64,000 nt of DNA from a phage, in assembly GCA_024449565.1 (NCBI GenBank), contig GCA_024449565.1_4810.1, one strand, 5' to 3'. This document shows, in pieces, positions 6,659 through 59,528 of this stretch; position 1 is the stretch's first letter, and every line of letters begins with the position of its first letter. The notes under the pieces were generated by a model. That model was given only the letters and a program-made list of their open reading frames with translations, was not told where the DNA came from and did no database searches. The translations under genes and the position numbers were made by a program.

Positions 6659-7039
6659 ATGTCAAATAAAAATGATTCTGTGAGTCACACATATACTAAA
6701 GGCAGCGGCATTGCTTTTGGTTCCAGCATCAAAATTGACGCTCCACCTTGCTATTCTGATGGATTGGAAGTTGGCAACCGCGACTTAACATGGGTTTTAC
6801 GTCGCCAATCCGATTTAGAAGAGAAGCTGGAAAATATTGAGCGTTCTCTTGAAAGTCTTCGCGACCAGCTTTTTGGTTGTCCTGAAGATGAGTCAAAACC
6901 TGAATCATATGCAGCCAATCGCGGTTTGATTGATAATATGCTTGCTATTACCGCTCGATCAATTGGTAAAACTGTGTCCATTGAATCATTGATCAGCCAG
7001 ATTGCGGATGGCTTTGGTGATGCCCATAAGAGCGAATAG
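6659..7039 (+). CDS. hypothetical coiled-coil protein (126 aa)
   Basis: Start moved to ATG 6659 preceded by GAAGGT; the longer track ORF starts at 6593. Confidence 0.5.
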   Translation: MSNKNDSVSHTYTKGSGIAFGSSIKIDAPPCYSDGLEVGNRDLTWVLRRQSDLEEKLENIERSLESLRDQLFGCPEDESKPESYAANRGLIDNMLAITARSIGKTVSIESLISQIADGFGDAHKSE

Positions 7040-7069
7040 TGGGTGGATGTTGCTTTAACCGTGAATCGT

Positions 7070-7096
7070 GGGTCGCTTAGTGCGGCCCTTTATTTT
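7070..7096 (+). terminator. intrinsic terminator after the 6659-7039 gene
   Basis: gggtcgc/gcggccc stem (one G-U pair), loop ttagt, then tttattttg. Confidence 0.5.
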
Positions 7097-7098
7097 GC

Positions 7099-7174
7099 CT
7101 GCCGCGCAGGAGTGTACTGCCGCGCAGGAGTGTACTGCCGCGCAGGAGTGTACTGCCGCGCAGGAGTGTACTGC
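7099..7174. repeat. tandem repeat, 18-bp unit ctgccgcgcaggagtgta x4 plus partial fifth
   Basis: Four perfect head-to-tail copies at 7099-7170 followed by ctgc; each unit is a near-palindrome. Confidence 0.9.
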
Positions 7175-7551
7175 AAATTTCCTGTGGGTACAAAATAGTA
7201 CGGTACTGTCTAGGACTTTTTCTTTGAAAAGTTAGTGGACCAAATGTGTCGTATTTTGATTAGTGTACCGCAAATTCCATCAAGTAGCAAAACGCACCAA
7301 AAGACCCATGCCCTAAAAACCACACGAACGCAATAATCAATCGCCGTTACAGTTTCCAGCGTTACAATTAGAAAGCGAATGATTCGATGCATAATAATAT
7401 GAAGCATAATGATTCGAAAGCTAATGGTTGCGCGTAGGATGATATCGGGAGGGATTATTCGAGATGCGTGTAATTTCGCATGCGTACTATTTTCGGGCGA
7501 AGGGTCGGCATATTCTTCGTTTTAGCTCGGAACGAAGGGAAAGTTTTGCGC

Positions 7552-7628
7552 CTTTATAAAACAACGACTTACGCGACCCGCCTTAACGGTCCGATATAGG
7601 TGTCTATATAAAACAAGGACTTACGCGA
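7552..7628. repeat. two 25-bp direct repeats (ctttataaaacaacgacttacgcga / ctatataaaacaaggacttacgcga)
   Basis: Copies at about 7552-7576 and 7604-7628, 2 mismatches, inside a ~570-bp non-coding stretch. Confidence 0.7.
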
Positions 7629-7750
7629 TGTTCTCCATTTAACGTAATACCTGTTATGCGAACTAAGGCGCATCTCGACGAAGATTGTGCGACGACGAAG
7701 GGAAGGATAAAGGAGTTTTCGCGTAGGAGCTCATCGAGATAGGGACGAAG

Positions 7751-7772
7751 AAAAGCCGCGACTAAGCGCGGC
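7751..7772 (-). terminator. terminator-like hairpin downstream of the 7793-8083 minus-strand gene
   Basis: gccgcg/cgcggc 6-bp stem, loop actaag; T-run on the minus strand (aaaa on plus at 7751-7754). Confidence 0.4.
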
Positions 7773-7792
7773 CTATTAGTAACGGAAGGGTA

Positions 7793-8083
7793 TTATAAGG
7801 AGACGATTTTAAAGAAAGAGTAACGGCCTTCGCCTTCGGATACCGCGATATATTCGCCGCCGAACTCCGTAGCAAAATAAACCTTGCCTTCGATAGTAAC
7901 GCGGAAGGTAGAAATATCTTCCTCTTCGAGTTCCGTAAATTCGCTAAAATCGATAGGACTATGAAGCTCCTCGATAGTCGCATCTACGTTAAAGAGATAA
8001 ACGTTTTTAAGTTTTTCGCCAAATACGTTAGAGTTTTCGGAAGTTTCGACGCGAGCGGAACGGATAGCGGCCAAAGTAATCAT
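7793..8083 (-). CDS. small acidic protein, paralog family member 1 (96 aa)
   Basis: AGGAGA RBS; CpG-rich codon usage; aligns with the 8719-9003 product (IRxAxVE, VYxxNVDxTIE, C-terminal GxxYFxAxE). Confidence 0.6.
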   Translation of the reverse strand: MITLAAIRSARVETSENSNVFGEKLKNVYLFNVDATIEELHSPIDFSEFTELEEEDISTFRVTIEGKVYFATEFGGEYIAVSEGEGRYSFFKIVSL

Positions 8084-8190
8084 AATATTCTCCTAGTTAG
8101 TCGGGAGGGTAGCGACCTATTCGCTACCTCATCCCCTCTCGATATAAAACATTATAGTCTTAGTGTACGAAGAAGTAAAGCACTTTTTCG
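8084..8190 (-). promoter_or_regulatory. upstream control region with AGTGTACGAAGAAGTAAAG element
   Basis: 19-bp element at 8162-8180 recurs at 8560-8578 (direct) and 8621-8639 (inverted, 2-3 mismatches); ctcgata(t/c)aaa also shared with the 8494-8560 region. Confidence 0.4.
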
Positions 8191-8493
8191 TTATTCTGCG
8201 ATAAAATATTTATAAGCTTTATCGCCTTCTACGTCGATATACTCGACGATAATTAACGCTTCGCCGCGCGGCGTAACCGTCTCGATAAGGGTAACGGCTT
8301 CGTCGTCGGTCTTCGCGAAGCGGATTGCGCTACGTTCGGCGTACTTAATATCATCGAAGGAAAGGCCGACGAAAGCGACCGCGCGGACCTTAATAATGGT
8401 AGATTCTAGTTCCGCGTTAACGGCAGCGATAAGAGAGCGAACGGTTAAACGGTCTTCGTCGTAAGTAAGGATAGAAGAGATTAAAGTAGTCAT
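8191..8493 (-). CDS. small acidic protein, possible distant paralog (100 aa)
   Basis: Start moved to ATG at 8493 with GGAG RBS (MTTLISSIL...); the longer track ORF ends at 8550. Confidence 0.55.
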   Translation of the reverse strand: MTTLISSILTYDEDRLTVRSLIAAVNAELESTIIKVRAVAFVGLSFDDIKYAERSAIRFAKTDDEAVTLIETVTPRGEALIIVEYIDVEGDKAYKYFIAE

Positions 8494-8718
8494 AATAAAA
8501 CTCCCGATGCTAGTAGAAGGAAGGGCCATCACCCGTCTCGATACAAACAAGTATACGCGAGTGTACGAAGAAGTAAAGAAAAAAGATAAAATAATTTATC
8601 TCATTTTTATCGAAAAAGTGCTTTACTTTTTTCTACACTATATTATAATGTACTCATATCGGGACGGGATGAGTTAACGAATAGGTCGTTAACGCCCGTC
8701 GAGAACTAGGAGTTTAAA
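8494..8718. promoter_or_regulatory. divergent intergenic control region
   Basis: Lies between divergent starts 8493 (minus) and 8719 (plus); contains inverted pair of the AGTGTAC...GTAAAG element and a tattataat -10-like box. Confidence 0.45.
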
Positions 8719-9003
8719 ATGGCTATTCTTAACGTTTCTTCCATCCGTAACGCTATCGTCGAGAACTACGGCGTAAAACAAATTTTATCCGAAGTTTACG
8801 CCGCGAACGTAGACCAAACTATCGAGGCGGGTGGGGTAACGGTCGCCGAGGCTTTTAAACTTTACGCGGCGCTACCGGAATCGGACCGCGAAGCCTTCGA
8901 AGTAAACGTTAACGGATACTTCTTCGAAGCGGTCGAAATCGGTAACATCTTACTCGTTATGGGCGAAGAAGAATTTGATACCTTCTCCCTCGTCGAAGCG
9001 TAA
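8719..9003 (+). CDS. small acidic protein, paralog family member 2 (94 aa)
   Basis: AGGAG RBS; CpG-rich codon usage; homologous to the 7793-8083 product. Confidence 0.6.
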   Translation: MAILNVSSIRNAIVENYGVKQILSEVYAANVDQTIEAGGVTVAEAFKLYAALPESDREAFEVNVNGYFFEAVEIGNILLVMGEEEFDTFSLVEA

Positions 9004-9083
9004 GAGAGGATTTTTAGAGCGTCGTGCGCGGCGCTTTAATAAAATTCTTTCGCGCCTAGCGCCCTAACAAATAGGAGTTCATT

Positions 9084-9710
9084 ATGGTTAGCTTAAATCG
9101 TTTCTCGACTAGCGGCGACGTTATCGCAACTAAGACCGCCGACCTCGTTGCATTTTATAATGCAAATTCAGGTTCGAAGCCGATTAAAAAATTTGCGGAC
9201 CGCCGGACCGCCGAGACTCGCGTAATCGCGCTAATCGAGTCCTTAAACGCGCTCGATGAGCCGTCCAACGAATCGCCAATCCCCGACGCGAAGCCGCGCG
9301 AGGAAGTGTCCAGCGATGTAAAAACGCATAAGGCGCGTGCGGTCGTTAAAAAGGCAGAGCCGACGCAGGAAGAACTCGACGCGATGAGCGATGAAGAGTA
9401 TGAAGCCTTCGTTAAGAGCGGCTTAAACGATAGTGCAAATTGCGTAGTGCAAAATGGAACTCCTTCCCATCGCCGTTCGAATAGCGAAGGTATTGCAAAA
9501 AGTTGGGACAATAAGGAAGTGGCGCAAAAGCGTCTCACCCGTAACGGCGTTATGGTCGAGGGTGTAGGAGAGTTCAAATCGGTCCGCGCAGCTTTCGCCG
9601 CGCTGGGATTACCGGATAGCAAGCACATTCGCTTCCGTATGAAGCTTAAGGAAGCTGGGCGCTTGAACTTCGAGTTCGGCAACAAGTCCTTTACCTTCCA
9701 GATTATCTAA
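9084..9710 (+). CDS. hypothetical protein (208 aa)
   Basis: AGGAG RBS; CpG-rich codon usage; two internal copies of the TAGTGCAAA(T/A) motif. Confidence 0.6.
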   Translation: MVSLNRFSTSGDVIATKTADLVAFYNANSGSKPIKKFADRRTAETRVIALIESLNALDEPSNESPIPDAKPREEVSSDVKTHKARAVVKKAEPTQEELDAMSDEEYEAFVKSGLNDSANCVVQNGTPSHRRSNSEGIAKSWDNKEVAQKRLTRNGVMVEGVGEFKSVRAAFAALGLPDSKHIRFRMKLKEAGRLNFEFGNKSFTFQII

Positions 9711-9760
9711 TCGAATGGCGGCCCTTCGGGGTCGCTTTTCATAGTGCAAATTGGTGGCTT

Positions 9761-10024
9761 ATGAATACGCTTATTCTCATCGCTACGTTGTCCATCGGAA
9801 GTGGTCGCACCTTATCCCTTTATGACCATAGTGCAAATTGCGCCTATCCTACGCGCGTTGCGGCGATAGTTAATAGTGCAAATAAGATGCTATTCGAGAC
9901 TTGCTGGAGGGTCGATAACGAGAAAGGTCGGGTAGTCTTAGGCTATAGTGCAAATCTGCTGGTGGAGTCGTTCGATTGGACGGTTGAAGGTCGTAAATTG
10001 TTACGTAAAGTGACTAAAAGATGA
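9761..10024 (+). CDS. questionable ORF (87 aa) carrying three in-frame motif copies
   Basis: Weak RBS; three in-frame AGT-GCA-AAT (Ser-Ala-Asn) copies of the motif; may be non-coding. Confidence 0.3.
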   Translation: MNTLILIATLSIGSGRTLSLYDHSANCAYPTRVAAIVNSANKMLFETCWRVDNEKGRVVLGYSANLLVESFDWTVEGRKLLRKVTKR

Positions 10025-10085
10025 CTTATAATAATACACTTTCTAACGCGTTTATGGTTACAACCTTCCCCGTCGTATTACCGAT

Positions 10086-10125
10086 GGCCCTAGAAGTGGA
10101 GAAAATGTGTTCTAGGGCCGTTTTA
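10086..10125 (+). terminator. terminator-like hairpin (10-bp perfect stem) between convergent genes
   Basis: ggccctagaa ... ttctagggcc with 14-nt loop, then gtttta; immediately followed by a motif copy. Confidence 0.45.
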
Positions 10126-10138
10126 TAGTGCAAATTGG

Positions 10139-10612
10139 CTAGTGGCGGGAGAATTGCTCTCCTTCTTTGGCCGCCTCTCCAAAATCCTTGTAGAAATCAT
10201 CCATGGAACGGCCCATTTTACTATTGCCATTTTCATCAATCATCGTGATGCCGTAGATGATATTCAGTTCACGAATGGCATTAAGTTTGGCTGATGCCGC
10301 GACTTCTGGATCACGCACAAGCTTCACTAGATTGTGGATGGAACTCTTTACGCTCCACAATTCCTTCAATGGCATCTCTTCCATACGCTTTTTGTAGCGC
10401 ATCTTGTAGTACGGATTGCGCTGAGTGCACAGGATTCGCTGGCCAGTGTAGTTATCGGTCGCAACCTCCATGCCAAATACTAGTGCAAAAGCTGCGCGCA
10501 TGTCATGGCCTTGAATAACAAGGTCAATGAACTCATCGAATAATGCCTGATTATGCTCTGCAAATCGCGGGTCTTCAAAGTCTTCAGGCATTGCTACATA
10601 ATCTTGACTCAT
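10139..10612 (-). CDS. hypothetical acidic protein (157 aa)
   Basis: Start moved to internal ATG at 10612 (MSQDYVAMPEDFED...); two motif copies abut the start on the other strand. Normal (non-island) composition. Confidence 0.5.
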   Translation of the reverse strand: MSQDYVAMPEDFEDPRFAEHNQALFDEFIDLVIQGHDMRAAFALVFGMEVATDNYTGQRILCTQRNPYYKMRYKKRMEEMPLKELWSVKSSIHNLVKLVRDPEVAASAKLNAIRELNIIYGITMIDENGNSKMGRSMDDFYKDFGEAAKEGEQFSRH

Positions 10613-10693
10613 AGTGCAAATCCCATAGTGCAAATTAATAGTGTGAATTATACAATGAATGAACATTATATTCAAGTGCAGATTGATGTTCAA

Positions 10694-11453
10694 ATTGGCT
10701 GTAAACGTACATAAATCATAGTGCTAAATGAATAGCGGACCGTGATGCGTGGTGTACTGTTTGATACGTATAAAAGAAATCCATCCCTTTCGCCGCTTGC
10801 TATGCAAATCAATGACTTAGCCGCTGCTGGCTGGTTGAAGCGTATCATGACGTATCATCCGTATTGCCGCAAGTCTTTGTTTTTACTTATATCTTACGGA
10901 TAATACGTATAAATATAAGTTCAGTATAAGTATGAGGATGTAGAAAAAAATTAATTTAAATTAATTCAAAATGGAGTTAATTGTTTTTTTCAAAGTTGTA
11001 TAAAGTATAGCGGCGACGCGTATCATCCGTATCATCCGTAAGATGTACCATTGAACCCAGTCGCGGCGCACCATAGAAGTGTGTGGAGTGAACTACGGAT
11101 AGGTCCAAATCTTACGTCATTATACGTTTAAATTCTATGCGTAAGGTTAGCCAGCTAACTATATCTCCTTTTTAATTTCAAGCGGCAATCCCAGAGACGG
11201 CGCACCATGTACACAAACACACCACGGTACACGCTCCAATTCCTAGTGATTTCCTCTCCAATCCCACAACACCACAGTACAATAATCTTCCAAAACCGCA
11301 CACATATTCAAGACGCAAAATTCACGTCACAATCCTCACTACCAACGACACTCTAATAGATTTACACAAATCAATCGATTTATCCGATAATAAAGACTCA
11401 CATTCCACAGGCAAATAAAAAGGGCCAATCGGCCCTCTTAACATTAATCATAA
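10694..11453. other. 760-bp non-coding region with iteron-like repeats, AT-rich dyad and strand-skewed CA-rich tract
   Basis: No ORF of 60 aa or more on either strand; CGTATCATCCGTA-type repeats at 10841-10870 and 11018-11040; AT-rich tract 10943-10991; CCCAGnnnCGGCGCACCAT at 11056-11074 and 11189-11207; G-poor tract about 11208-11400. Confidence 0.5.
11408..11437 (-). terminator. intrinsic terminator downstream of the 11454-11906 gene
   Basis: gggcc/ggccc stem with T-run on the minus strand (ctttttatttgcctg). Confidence 0.5.
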
Positions 11454-11906
11454 TTAAAATATAAAATTCTTCACTCCAAGCCTTTTAAATTCTTTCCTTA
11501 ACATCATATTAAACTTCTTCAATTTAGTTTTATTCATCCTTAGCGGATTGTAGGTGAACACCTTTTCTATTACTTCCTCACTCATTTTTGAGCGCATATT
11601 AGTTGCGTAATAGTTCTTGAACGTATAAATAAGGTAATTTGCTTCAAGCTTAAGTTCAATTACTTCCTCCGATTCATCAAGCTCAAGCAATCCTCTTTGC
11701 GTAAGAATATCTCTTAATATATCCTGACATTTCTTGCAATCACCTTTGCCTAAAAGCGAGTCGATGTAATCGCCGCTGACGCGCTCATCACCGAAGTATG
11801 TTGCGCGACCACAAAGGCTTTGCACTTCTCCTTCGTCAAAGTAGTGCGCGCGATGAGCCCACTTCGGTATGGCCCAACCAGCGGCGATAAGCTTATTACC
11901 CATCAC
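11454..11906 (-). CDS. hypothetical protein (150 aa)
   Basis: ORF track; 4-bp overlap with upstream gene. Confidence 0.55.
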   Translation of the reverse strand: MMGNKLIAAGWAIPKWAHRAHYFDEGEVQSLCGRATYFGDERVSGDYIDSLLGKGDCKKCQDILRDILTQRGLLELDESEEVIELKLEANYLIYTFKNYYATNMRSKMSEEVIEKVFTYNPLRMNKTKLKKFNMMLRKEFKRLGVKNFIF

Positions 11907-31664: not shown

Positions 31665-32207
31665 GTGTTATTTCTCCCTTATGACTTCGAAACAACAGGA
31701 TTAACCGTGCACCCGAAAGCGCCGCTTGGAATGCAGCCGCGCCCTATTGAATTTGCAGGGTTGTTGACGGACGGCAAAGAGATTCTTGAAACGTTCGAGT
31801 TCATAATTAATCCTGAAATTGTGATTGAAGAAATCATCACAAAGATTACCGGATTGACAAATGAAGACCTTGAGTGCAATCCACCATTCATCAATTTTGT
31901 CCCGCAGCTAAAAGAAATCTTCAAGAAGACGGATGCCACTATCGCGCACAACCATGCGTTCGATAAAAACATTCTTGATTATGCACTACAGCGCGAAGGA
32001 CTTACGCTTGATGATGTTAATTTTCCAGAAATAAACATTTGTACAGTTGAGCAAACCTTGCCTATTTTTGGCCGAAGAGTTAAGCTTCAAGAGCTGTATG
32101 AATTATATTTCGGAAAATATGAACAGAAACACCGTGCATTAGACGACGTAATATTACTGCACAAAGTCTGCCAACAAATTGGCGTATATGACATCTGGAG
32201 TAAATAA
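31665..32207 (+). CDS. DnaQ-like 3-5 exonuclease (DEDDh family)
   Basis: 180 aa; GTG start with AGGAGG RBS; Exo I FLPYDFETTGL, Exo II HNHAFDKNIL, Exo III HRALDDV. Confidence 0.8.
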   Translation: MLFLPYDFETTGLTVHPKAPLGMQPRPIEFAGLLTDGKEILETFEFIINPEIVIEEIITKITGLTNEDLECNPPFINFVPQLKEIFKKTDATIAHNHAFDKNILDYALQREGLTLDDVNFPEINICTVEQTLPIFGRRVKLQELYELYFGKYEQKHRALDDVILLHKVCQQIGVYDIWSK

Positions 32208-59141: not shown

Positions 59142-59528
59142 TCAAGTAGACACTGGAAAGCTTTGTTTTACTTCCACGGCAAGGCAAGACGTCCAACCAT
59201 CTTGGTCAAACCATGTCGTTTCATCTTCCATCTTGTACGTTTTGCCACCAAACACAAAATAGTCGCCGGAAGCGTCGCGGTCAAGGTCAACAATGTCTTT
59301 GTCCACCCAGATTTTGACATAGTTCTTTTGAAGCTCTAATCCAAGCTCAACGTATTGGTTTCGAAGAACAGCCTGCACCGAAGCAAGTAGGGTGATTGGT
59401 TCTTCATATGTAGTGACATAGTTGCGCATCTTATCAAGGGTGCGCCCCTTGTACATGTAATATTGAATCGGTTGGCGACCGATGACCTTTGTCGCAACTC
59501 GATATAAGTTTACGCCAGGAATCCTCAC
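59142..59528 (-). CDS. hypothetical virion-module protein (128 aa)
   Basis: ORF track. Confidence 0.5.
   Translation of the reverse strand: MRIPGVNLYRVATKVIGRQPIQYYMYKGRTLDKMRNYVTTYEEPITLLASVQAVLRNQYVELGLELQKNYVKIWVDKDIVDLDRDASGDYFVFGGKTYKMEDETTWFDQDGWTSCLAVEVKQSFPVST

Follow-up and report, generated by a model that had tools for sequence, protein, structure and literature searches.

A polar array of a 12-bp motif around the small terminase gene

The stretch of phage DNA analysed here (64,000 nucleotides from contig GCA_024449565.1_4810.1, hereafter the window) comes from a Wifcevirus, a myovirus of Escherichia coli with a genome of about 68 kb and with the PB1-like Pseudomonas phages among its relatives. 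Within and around terS, the gene of the small terminase subunit (TerS), the window carries a set of 12-bp sites that all point in the same direction and lie close to one end of the mature genome. The explanation that we favour, tentatively, is that these sites form a polar terminase-recognition array, most likely read by the ring-shaped TerS. If so, the array is the first concrete candidate for the DNA signal of the packaging machinery of this phage family, and the first target proposed for a TerS of the E217/PB1 type.

An exact-word count on both strands of the 64,000 bases found TAGTGCAAA ten times between 9431 and 10634, always on the plus strand (starts at 9431, 9445, 9742, 9829, 9874, 9946, 10126, 10481, 10612 and 10626), with no further copy on either strand of the window. 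The ten starts listed by the first-pass annotation, which had been made from the sequence without database searches, are thereby all exact. Shuffles preserving dinucleotide composition contained 0.81 copies on average and four at most. The full 11-mer ATAGTGCAAAT is present in eight of the ten copies. A scan of the window with a position-weight matrix added weaker copies on the same strand at 9157, 10638, 10673 and 10718, while sites of at least 14 bits were confined to the array; the highest-scoring site outside it, at 31978, reaches 13.9 bits and lies on the opposite strand.

Read on the terS-sense strand, the motif is AATTTGCACTAT, with the 12-bp consensus rATTTGCACTAy, and a pool of 62 sites gave rATTT-GCACTA-y. 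The profile of these 62 sites contains no information outside motif positions −5 to +6 within ±45 bp; the element is thus a single 12-bp site. The spacing of the copies is irregular (14 to 355 bp), with neither helical phasing nor a regular period, and the array extends from −112 to +1176 counted from the ATG of terS. At six of the ten copies, the local genes, namely the two plus-strand genes that converge on terS (Table 1), run in the direction opposite to the motif. The first-pass annotation had described the last two copies as a tandem abutting the start codon of the minus-strand gene; indeed, they lie 14 bp apart and the 11-mer at 10611–10621 shares 2 nt with the terS start codon (CAT, 10610–10612). 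A literature search for the motif, confined to one library of papers, found nothing.

Conservation of the array and its effect on overlapping genes

The motif was then sought in related phages in a non-circular manner, using a matrix derived only from the ten copies of the window and applied to the terS zones of other lineages. In each of eight other lineages, the terS zone contains 9–13 sense-strand sites and 0–1 antisense sites (shuffles: mean ~0.4, maximum 3). The TerS proteins of these lineages are 44–70% identical to that of the window and their DNA is otherwise unalignable to it. The 17 more distant TerS lineages, including Pbunavirus, Serratia phage MTx and Salmonella phage PCSE1, have 0–1 sites. 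In Pantoea phage Kyle, for instance, whose TerS is 44% identical and whose DNA aligns to the window over ~120 bp only, the core GCACTA occurs 14 times on the TerS-sense strand at 477–1478 and twice elsewhere in 7 kb, both times on the other strand. The same pattern is found in contigs encoding a TerS of 45–70% identity and in three further metagenome contigs. In the TerS tree, all nine lineages with the array group into a single monophyletic clade, and the subtle variants of the motif show no clean pattern of co-variation with TerS subclades. A mismatch-tolerant k-mer search of array-less lineages detected no equivalent dispersed array of another word above shuffle level, only small upstream and Chi-like clusters.

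The copies that overlap genes indicate on which molecule selection acts. In the gene for an 87-amino-acid protein, the copies sit at alignment positions that differ between lineages and impose the tripeptides xSA(n/d) or (I/V/L)VQ where the homologues have unrelated residues; only the middle copy of the window (N-S-A) is positionally conserved across lineages. As the sites of the copies vary from lineage to lineage and change the amino acid sequence encoded by the overlapping gene, selection acts on the DNA. Similarly, the copy internal to terS encodes Ala-Leu as GCA-CTA, although CTA accounts for 4.4% of the Leu codons of the genome, and the same codon pair is present in the terS genes of lineage L025 and of Kyle. 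Four of the five copies lying in open reading frames do read AGT-GCA-AAT, as had been remarked from the sequence, but the TAG of the motif leaves only two frames readable, and for four of five copies to share one of these two is not significant (p ~0.4). On the other hand, the proposal that a single-orientation motif at this density is functional and not due to chance is borne out by its persistence at one location and in one polarity in nine lineages with unalignable DNA, and by the reshaping of the overlapping protein.

Position relative to the genome end and direction of packaging

The database record of phage WFH has an exact 3,701-bp repeat at both ends, in line with the direct terminal repeat (DTR) of "about 3.7 kb" given for this phage (PMC6563267), and the record of phage Mansfield opens at a 3,673-bp DTR predicted by PhageTerm. 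The left ends of both records map to ~10973 in the window and the inner boundary of the repeat maps to ~7300, which places the array inside the DTR, 250–1,540 bp from where the virion DNA physically ends on the left. In WFH, Mansfield and Kyle, for which it is independently defined, the left terminus maps 361 bp upstream of terS. Proximity to a cut, one of the properties expected of a terminase site, is therefore observed: the array starts ~250 bp from the mature genome end. The location of the array at and within the small terminase gene, another such property, is observed in the window and, in the same zone, in the eight other lineages.

The identity of terS is well supported. A phmmer comparison aligned residues 3–147 of its product with the decameric TerS of Pseudomonas phage E217 (PDB code: 7UXE; E = 9e-33), the AlphaFold model (mean pLDDT 72.7) has 7UXE as its top Foldseek match (probability 1.00, 39% identity), and the homologous gene of Mansfield is annotated as TerS. 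The large terminase gene (491–1906) lies on the same, minus, strand. In the window, the two terminase genes are ~8 kb apart with many small genes in between; in E217 they are reportedly 58 kb apart. This distance is an effect of where the linear map was opened: on the concatemer, the terminase genes are neighbours, with terS coming first in the direction of packaging.

A likely direction of packaging is suggested by a headful-packaging Pbunavirus relative, JG024. Long reads of this phage have a preferred start at 59,376, which is ~600 bp upstream of terS, and a pac fragment of ~15 kb was observed (PMC10913387). In the XbaI map of JG024, the next site lies 14,627 bp rightward of the start and 20,954 bp leftward. 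As a ~15-kb fragment fits only the rightward distance, JG024 packages in the terS-sense direction. The record of another Pbunavirus, Ab27, opens at the very nucleotide at which the JG024 reads start. By homology, we infer that packaging in the window starts at ~10973 and runs to lower coordinates, so that the array would be the first 0.25–1.5 kb translocated and the motif would be oriented along the direction of travel.

A candidate terminase-recognition array

In phages with DTRs, the terminal repeat is present once per junction in the replicating concatemer. The terminase would cut at the left boundary of the repeat, at ~10973 in the window, an end mapped in relatives, and the DNA would enter the capsid in the terS-sense direction if JG024 is a valid guide. 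The first 0.25–1.5 kb translocated would then carry the 10–14 co-oriented copies of 5'-rATTTGCACTAy-3'. TerS rings may slide along these sites or bridge them, and TerS bound in this way would mark the DNA as viral, keep the terminase on the proper side of the cut and determine the direction of packaging. Co-orientation combined with irregular spacing would indeed fit a threaded, sliding or bridging cyclic reader, and not a dimeric repressor; the channel of E217-type TerS is wide enough for duplex DNA (PMC9611059). Among the three functions that the first-pass annotation had envisaged for the array (binding of a regulator, of a replication initiator or of a packaging protein), packaging is the best supported, as the array surrounds terS and lies 0.25–1.5 kb from the genome end, on the side presumably packaged first; the first-pass annotation had recognised neither the neighbouring gene as the small terminase nor the region as a terminal repeat. 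The array itself is observed directly, with its location, polarity, conservation and cost to coding sequence, whereas its reader, the direction of packaging in Wifcevirus and the mechanism are deduced.

The inner boundary of the DTR provides a further link. A motif-like 16-mer resembling AAATTTGCAGTACACT is present twice, 24 and 125 bp beyond this boundary, and Kyle and lineage L035 have retained AGTACACTAAT at an identical offset. These inner-boundary elements share ATTTGC and CACTA with the array motif, which ties the array to the place where the second cut has to be made.

As regards the reader, a phage-encoded protein is favoured over a host protein because PCSE1 and MTx lack the array even though their hosts are close to E. 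coli. None of the known recognition sites of host factors that were compared (IHF, Fis, CRP, LexA, TrpR and others) matches the motif, and the absence of the array from the Salmonella and Serratia relatives also speaks against them. In the N-terminal helical domain, [K/Q/R]-R-N distinguishes TerS of the array clade from that of all 19 other lineages, which have E-x-N, with an acidic residue, at this place; in the AlphaFold model, this position is at the end of helix 56–65, just before the basic helix 67–79.

Several observations weigh against recognition of the array by the terminase. (i) According to a review, E217 TerS shows no appreciable DNA binding in vitro (PMC9611059), a result qualified by the fact that E217 lacks this array. 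(ii) The array consists of 10–14 sites over ~1.3 kb, not of a few sites within ~300 bp or less. Known pac and cosB sites span at most ~300 bp, as against the 1.3 kb of the array. (iii) The agreement between ~10 sites and a TerS decamer depends on the score threshold, and a few matrix matches are by-products of the conserved peptides H-Y and K-H-stop in the TerS tail. (iv) Within the genus, the motif columns are not more conserved than the background (21/132 versus 146/1229 variable positions, p = 0.2), in a comparison of seven Wifcevirus genomes at ~95% identity that has low power. Phage ECML-117 lacks the two copies of the distal pair and other Wifcevirus genomes carry single substitutions, so that individual copies are dispensable. 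(v) Sister clades with the same TerS family package their DNA without the array. (vi) The clade-specific TerS substitution is only suggestive as a clue to the reader, as it reflects a single evolutionary event. (vii) The signal that positions the cuts may be something other than the array: GCGGCA, the ACGGAT repeats placed symmetrically around the terminus and, at the inner boundary, GTACACTAAT all lie nearer to the cuts, and the terminase may in fact recognise these elements.

Concerning ECML-117 (L013), the equivalent of 9425–9460 is a ~30-bp patch within the gene for a 208-amino-acid protein where unrelated sequence replaces that of the window between flanks of ~95% identity, which suggests a small recombinational replacement.

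A more specific form of the proposal, which we consider unlikely but worth spelling out, is that a threaded TerS ring or the terminase holoenzyme reads the dispersed co-oriented 12-mers while moving away from the cut, thereby checking that the DNA is viral, fixing the direction and perhaps priming the second cut 3.7 kb downstream, at the boundary with the motif-like sequence. If true, this would be a mode of recognition unlike the compact cos and pac sites known so far.

The recognition of viral DNA by small terminases is a long-standing problem: for most phages, either the site is not known or binding in vitro has been irreproducible. The E217/PB1-type TerS family, which includes that of therapeutically used Pseudomonas phages, has no known DNA target (PMC9611059), E217 TerS having shown no appreciable binding in vitro. 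If our interpretation is correct, the array would be the first defined target for this family, and one that evolves by turnover of sites inside genes. It provides a precise, conserved and easily mutable 12-bp candidate next to a mapped genome end which, together with three boundary elements, lends itself to the direct design of assays. It also matters for the rebooting and engineering of these phages, where termini and packaging signals must be kept. Confirmation of a dispersed polar architecture would widen the repertoire of packaging signals and provide a case in which selection on a DNA signal reshapes overlapping proteins.

Alternative explanations

The copies might instead be bound by another sequence-specific protein, most likely encoded by the phage, with a role at the genome end other than packaging: a polar roadblock or protective coat of bound monomers against exonucleases and helicases coming from the left end, or recombination between terminal repeats. 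We judge this unlikely, yet it has points in its favour. In seven of the nine array lineages, and in MTx, the terS-sense strand of the same zone carries a same-polarity cluster of CCACCAGC (reverse complement of Chi, GCTGGTGG), an orientation in which Chi is active for RecBCD entering at the left end; this part of the DTR is therefore under selection for end-related processes. The strict polarity and irregular spacing of the array would also suit a directional barrier of the Tus–Ter type, and the motif copies are most uniform in the lineages devoid of a Chi cluster, namely Wifcevirus and L025 (the window has a single Chi in the zone, at 9958–9965). However, the motif is neither Chi nor Chi-like; it shares only TAGTG with the weak Chi variant GCTAGTGG. 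The explanation also leaves aside both the close tracking of terS by the array and the motif-like sequence at the inner boundary.

The gene for the 208-amino-acid protein always flanks the far side of the array, but its product has no recognisable domain and is conserved in the array-less Pbunavirus (34% identity to JG024 gp81), on which grounds we rejected it as the reader of the array. This protein has no Pfam, PDB or named homologue, and a large protein search returned near-identical copies only; judging by its sequence, it may consist of two small helical domains with an acidic, proline-rich linker between them.

The CCACCAGC clusters themselves, all terS-sense, occupy the first ~2 kb of the terminal repeat, with 10 copies in Kyle (L006, 255–1972), 7 in L026 (323–1824), 5 in L028 (411–1836), 4 in L034, 7 in L035 and 8 in L036; MTx (L007, 179–1276) has 4 exact copies, or 12 if one mismatch is allowed. 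Their orientation suggests end protection or RecBCD-driven recombination between the terminal repeats. That the array itself is made of Chi sites was rejected, as the motif differs and the three Chi sites of the window, against 1.3 expected by chance, are no enrichment.

It is rather improbable that the copies serve primarily as operators for a transcriptional regulator, possibly TerS or an early protein, of terS and the convergent DTR genes. A conserved TATAAT lies 37–58 nt upstream of the terS ATG in all nine array lineages, and in five of them, the window included, the terS leader is filled with motif copies that overlap this box or come directly after it; in the other four, no copy lies between the −10 box and the ATG. 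Two copies of the window come immediately after terminators, in front of the next gene; one of these terminators, that of the gene at 9084–9710, is annotated in WFH, and the copy behind it (9741–9751) is unchanged across seven Wifcevirus genomes. As an excess of TerS is harmful in E217 (PMC9611059), autoregulation is plausible. Yet most copies lie inside coding sequences, far from any promoter, and operators rarely need 10–14 co-oriented copies over 1.3 kb. A role related to the promoter cannot explain the copies inside genes, and regulation, which the first-pass annotation had put forward, is retained only as a secondary role: in the five lineages concerned, the copies at the terS promoter and leader could allow autoregulation. 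The copies are not promoters either, whether σ70-type or activator-dependent: no second conserved element is found at a fixed distance within ±45 bp, and for six of the ten copies the local genes are read from the other strand.

A third, very improbable possibility is a replication origin, with the copies as iterons to which a phage initiator or, weakly, the host DnaA would bind. In its favour, the array is made of co-oriented direct repeats close to a non-coding, AT-rich stretch (10635–11450), and the motif agrees with the relaxed DnaA box TTWTNCACA at 7 of 9 positions in our own comparison. On closer inspection, the two mismatched positions are invariant or nearly so over the 62 sites, and the position that DnaA ignores is always G, which led us to reject a DnaA box. 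The spacing is irregular, the copies lie mostly in genes and not in the AT-rich stretch, the Salmonella and Serratia relatives have no array, and the primase gene is 10 kb away. The replication initiator suggested by the first-pass annotation found no support.

Least probable of all is a signal acting in RNA, as a processing or protein-binding site in the terS or convergent transcripts: single-strand polarity would be natural for it and the proximal copies lie in the predicted terS leader, but the strand that is sense for terS is antisense for the two convergent genes holding six of the ten copies, so that one RNA motif cannot serve both gene sets, and there is neither a conserved flanking structure nor an Rfam 15 covariance-model match at E ≤ 0.1 in 7000–11600.

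Other elements of the terminal repeat

The coordinates of the array, of the genes that it overlaps and of the other elements of the DTR are collected in Table 1.

Table 1. Features of the terminal repeat and its borders in the window (strand − is terS-sense)
Feature	Position	Strand	Remarks
Elements beyond the inner DTR boundary	7099–7282	−	AAATTTGCGGTACACTAATCA at ~7255–7282; AAATTTGCAG, then four tandem TACACTCCTGCGCGGCAG units, at 7099–7188
Direct terminal repeat	7300–10973		Single collapsed copy; inner boundary ~7300, physical left end ~10973
Gene of 208-amino-acid protein, PHROG 4730	9084–9710	+	Conserved; at far edge of array; convergent with terS
Weak outlier copy	9157–9167	−	ATAATGCAAAT; 13 bits; variable within genus
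Distal tandem pair	9430–9454	−	14 bp apart; ATAGTGCAAAT and GTAGTGCAAAA on plus strand, AATTTGCACTAT and ATTTTGCACTAC TerS-sense; within gene 9084–9710
Intergenic copy	9741–9751	−	Right after intrinsic terminator of gene 9084–9710; 10 nt before ATG of gene 9761–10024
Gene of 87-amino-acid protein	9761–10024	+	Real, conserved; overlapped by three motif copies
Three copies in the 87-amino-acid gene	9828–9955	−	9828–9838, 9873–9883 and 9945–9955; encode H-S-A-N, N-S-A-N and Y-S-A-N
Copy downstream of terS	10125–10135	−	Between terS stop codon (10139–10141) and terminator hairpin (10085–10120)
terS, small terminase subunit	10139–10612	−	157 amino acids; surrounded by array
Copy within terS	10480–10490	−	TTT GCA CTA GTA = F-A-L-V
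Proximal tandem pair	10611–10635	−	14 bp apart; between predicted terS transcription start and ATG
Three degenerate copies	10638–10729	−	10638–10649 (AATTCACACTAT), 10673–10684 and 10718–10729 (ATTTAGCACTAT); overlap terS promoter region
Two overlapping σ70-like terS promoters	10647–10693	−	−35 10693–10688 with −10 10670–10665; −35 10675–10670 with −10 10652–10647; 10/12 matches each
ACGGAT/ATCCGTA (TACGGAT) repeats	10851–11047		10851–10864, 10888–10910 and 11019–11047; bracket the terminus
Family-wide element TTGCGGCAA	10865–10870	−	~100 bp inside the left terminus

Two of the elements lie close to the left terminus. Across the TerS family as a whole, whose members range from Pseudomonas to E. 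coli phages, most lineages have a sense-oriented GCGGCA, within (T)TGCGGCAA, 160–290 bp upstream of terS, with equivalents in L007, L008, L009, L019, L037, L039, L047, L055 and others, and several copies in Pbunavirus; it is a family-wide candidate for the core terminase signal. The ACGGAT repeats include 23-nt inverted arms (10888–10910 and 11025–11047) whose centre, at ~10967, is within ~5 bp of the terminus at ~10973. Their layout, with a plus-oriented pair, the terminus and a minus-oriented pair, recurs in L026 and L028, is weak in L027 and is absent from L025 and Kyle.

At the inner boundary, the window has 3.5 copies of the 18-nt tandem repeat CTGCCGCGCAGGAGTGTA, whose copy number varies among Wifcevirus isolates, with four units here where WFH and Mansfield have one; Mansfield shows an expansion of another short repeat, CCCACGA, close by. 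Midway along the DTR, at 8110–8193 and 8608–8691, there are two long inverted repeats of 33–36 nt, 86–88% complementary, with arms ~410–510 nt apart. They hold outward-facing σ70-like promoters (TTTACT...TATAAT, with GTACACT in the spacer) and, from their sequence, look like a duplicated divergent promoter pair for the two gene sets of the repeat.

Comparison with known systems

In phage λ, cosB comprises three 16-bp gpNu1 sites, R1–R3, in ~120 bp between cosN and Nu1, in mixed orientation and with an additional IHF site. The order found here, from the genome end through repeated candidate sites to the small terminase gene, with the sites on the presumed packaged side and the last one abutting the gene, resembles cosN–cosB–Nu1. 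Unlike λ, the array has 10–14 sites of 12 bp, in one orientation, over 1.3 kb and three genes, and the genome ends are 3.7-kb direct repeats instead of cohesive ends.

As in SPP1 pac (pacL, pacC and pacR) and P22 pac, the candidate signal overlaps or flanks the small terminase gene; in SPP1 and P22 the signal is read by a ring-shaped TerS, as we propose here. SPP1 pac is contacted at several points on either side of the cut (PMC9611059). SPP1 and P22 are headful phages with sites of ~300 bp at most, made of two to four short boxes, whereas the phages considered here have fixed ends, a long DTR and a far larger, strictly polar array.

The parC locus of plasmid R1 consists of ten 11-bp direct repeats that are bound cooperatively by ParR and flank or overlap the promoter that ParR autoregulates. 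The array likewise has about ten direct repeats of 11–12 bp flanking and overlapping a promoter; however, parC has two uninterrupted blocks of five repeats and functions in plasmid segregation, whereas the copies of the array are dispersed in a lytic phage where no partition genes were found.

The array may also be compared with KOPS/FtsK, Chi/RecBCD and Ter/Tus, in which short asymmetric words act on a moving machine in an orientation-dependent manner, are irregularly spaced and are tolerated in genes. It shares this layout, and same-polarity Chi clusters occupy the same zone in most relatives. Unlike those words, which are spread over whole chromosomes and read by host proteins, the array occupies just 1.3 kb beside the end of a viral genome, and it does not correspond in sequence to any of them. 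In the more specific and less likely form of our proposal, it would be a viral counterpart of such chromosome-orienting polar sequences.

Finally, the HK97 small terminase has been proposed to be threaded on DNA as a circular TerS and to check the sequence while sliding (Chechik et al., PMC10370121). Sliding of this type would make orientation matter and spacing irrelevant, as is the case in the array. HK97, however, recognises one minimal site in cos, and the TerS considered here is an E217-type decamer from a different family, to which threading would extend by analogy. Repeated terminase sites next to a small terminase gene are already known; what is new about the candidate array is that it is strictly polar, has 10–14 copies dispersed over 1.3 kb, overlaps genes and lies in a long terminal repeat.

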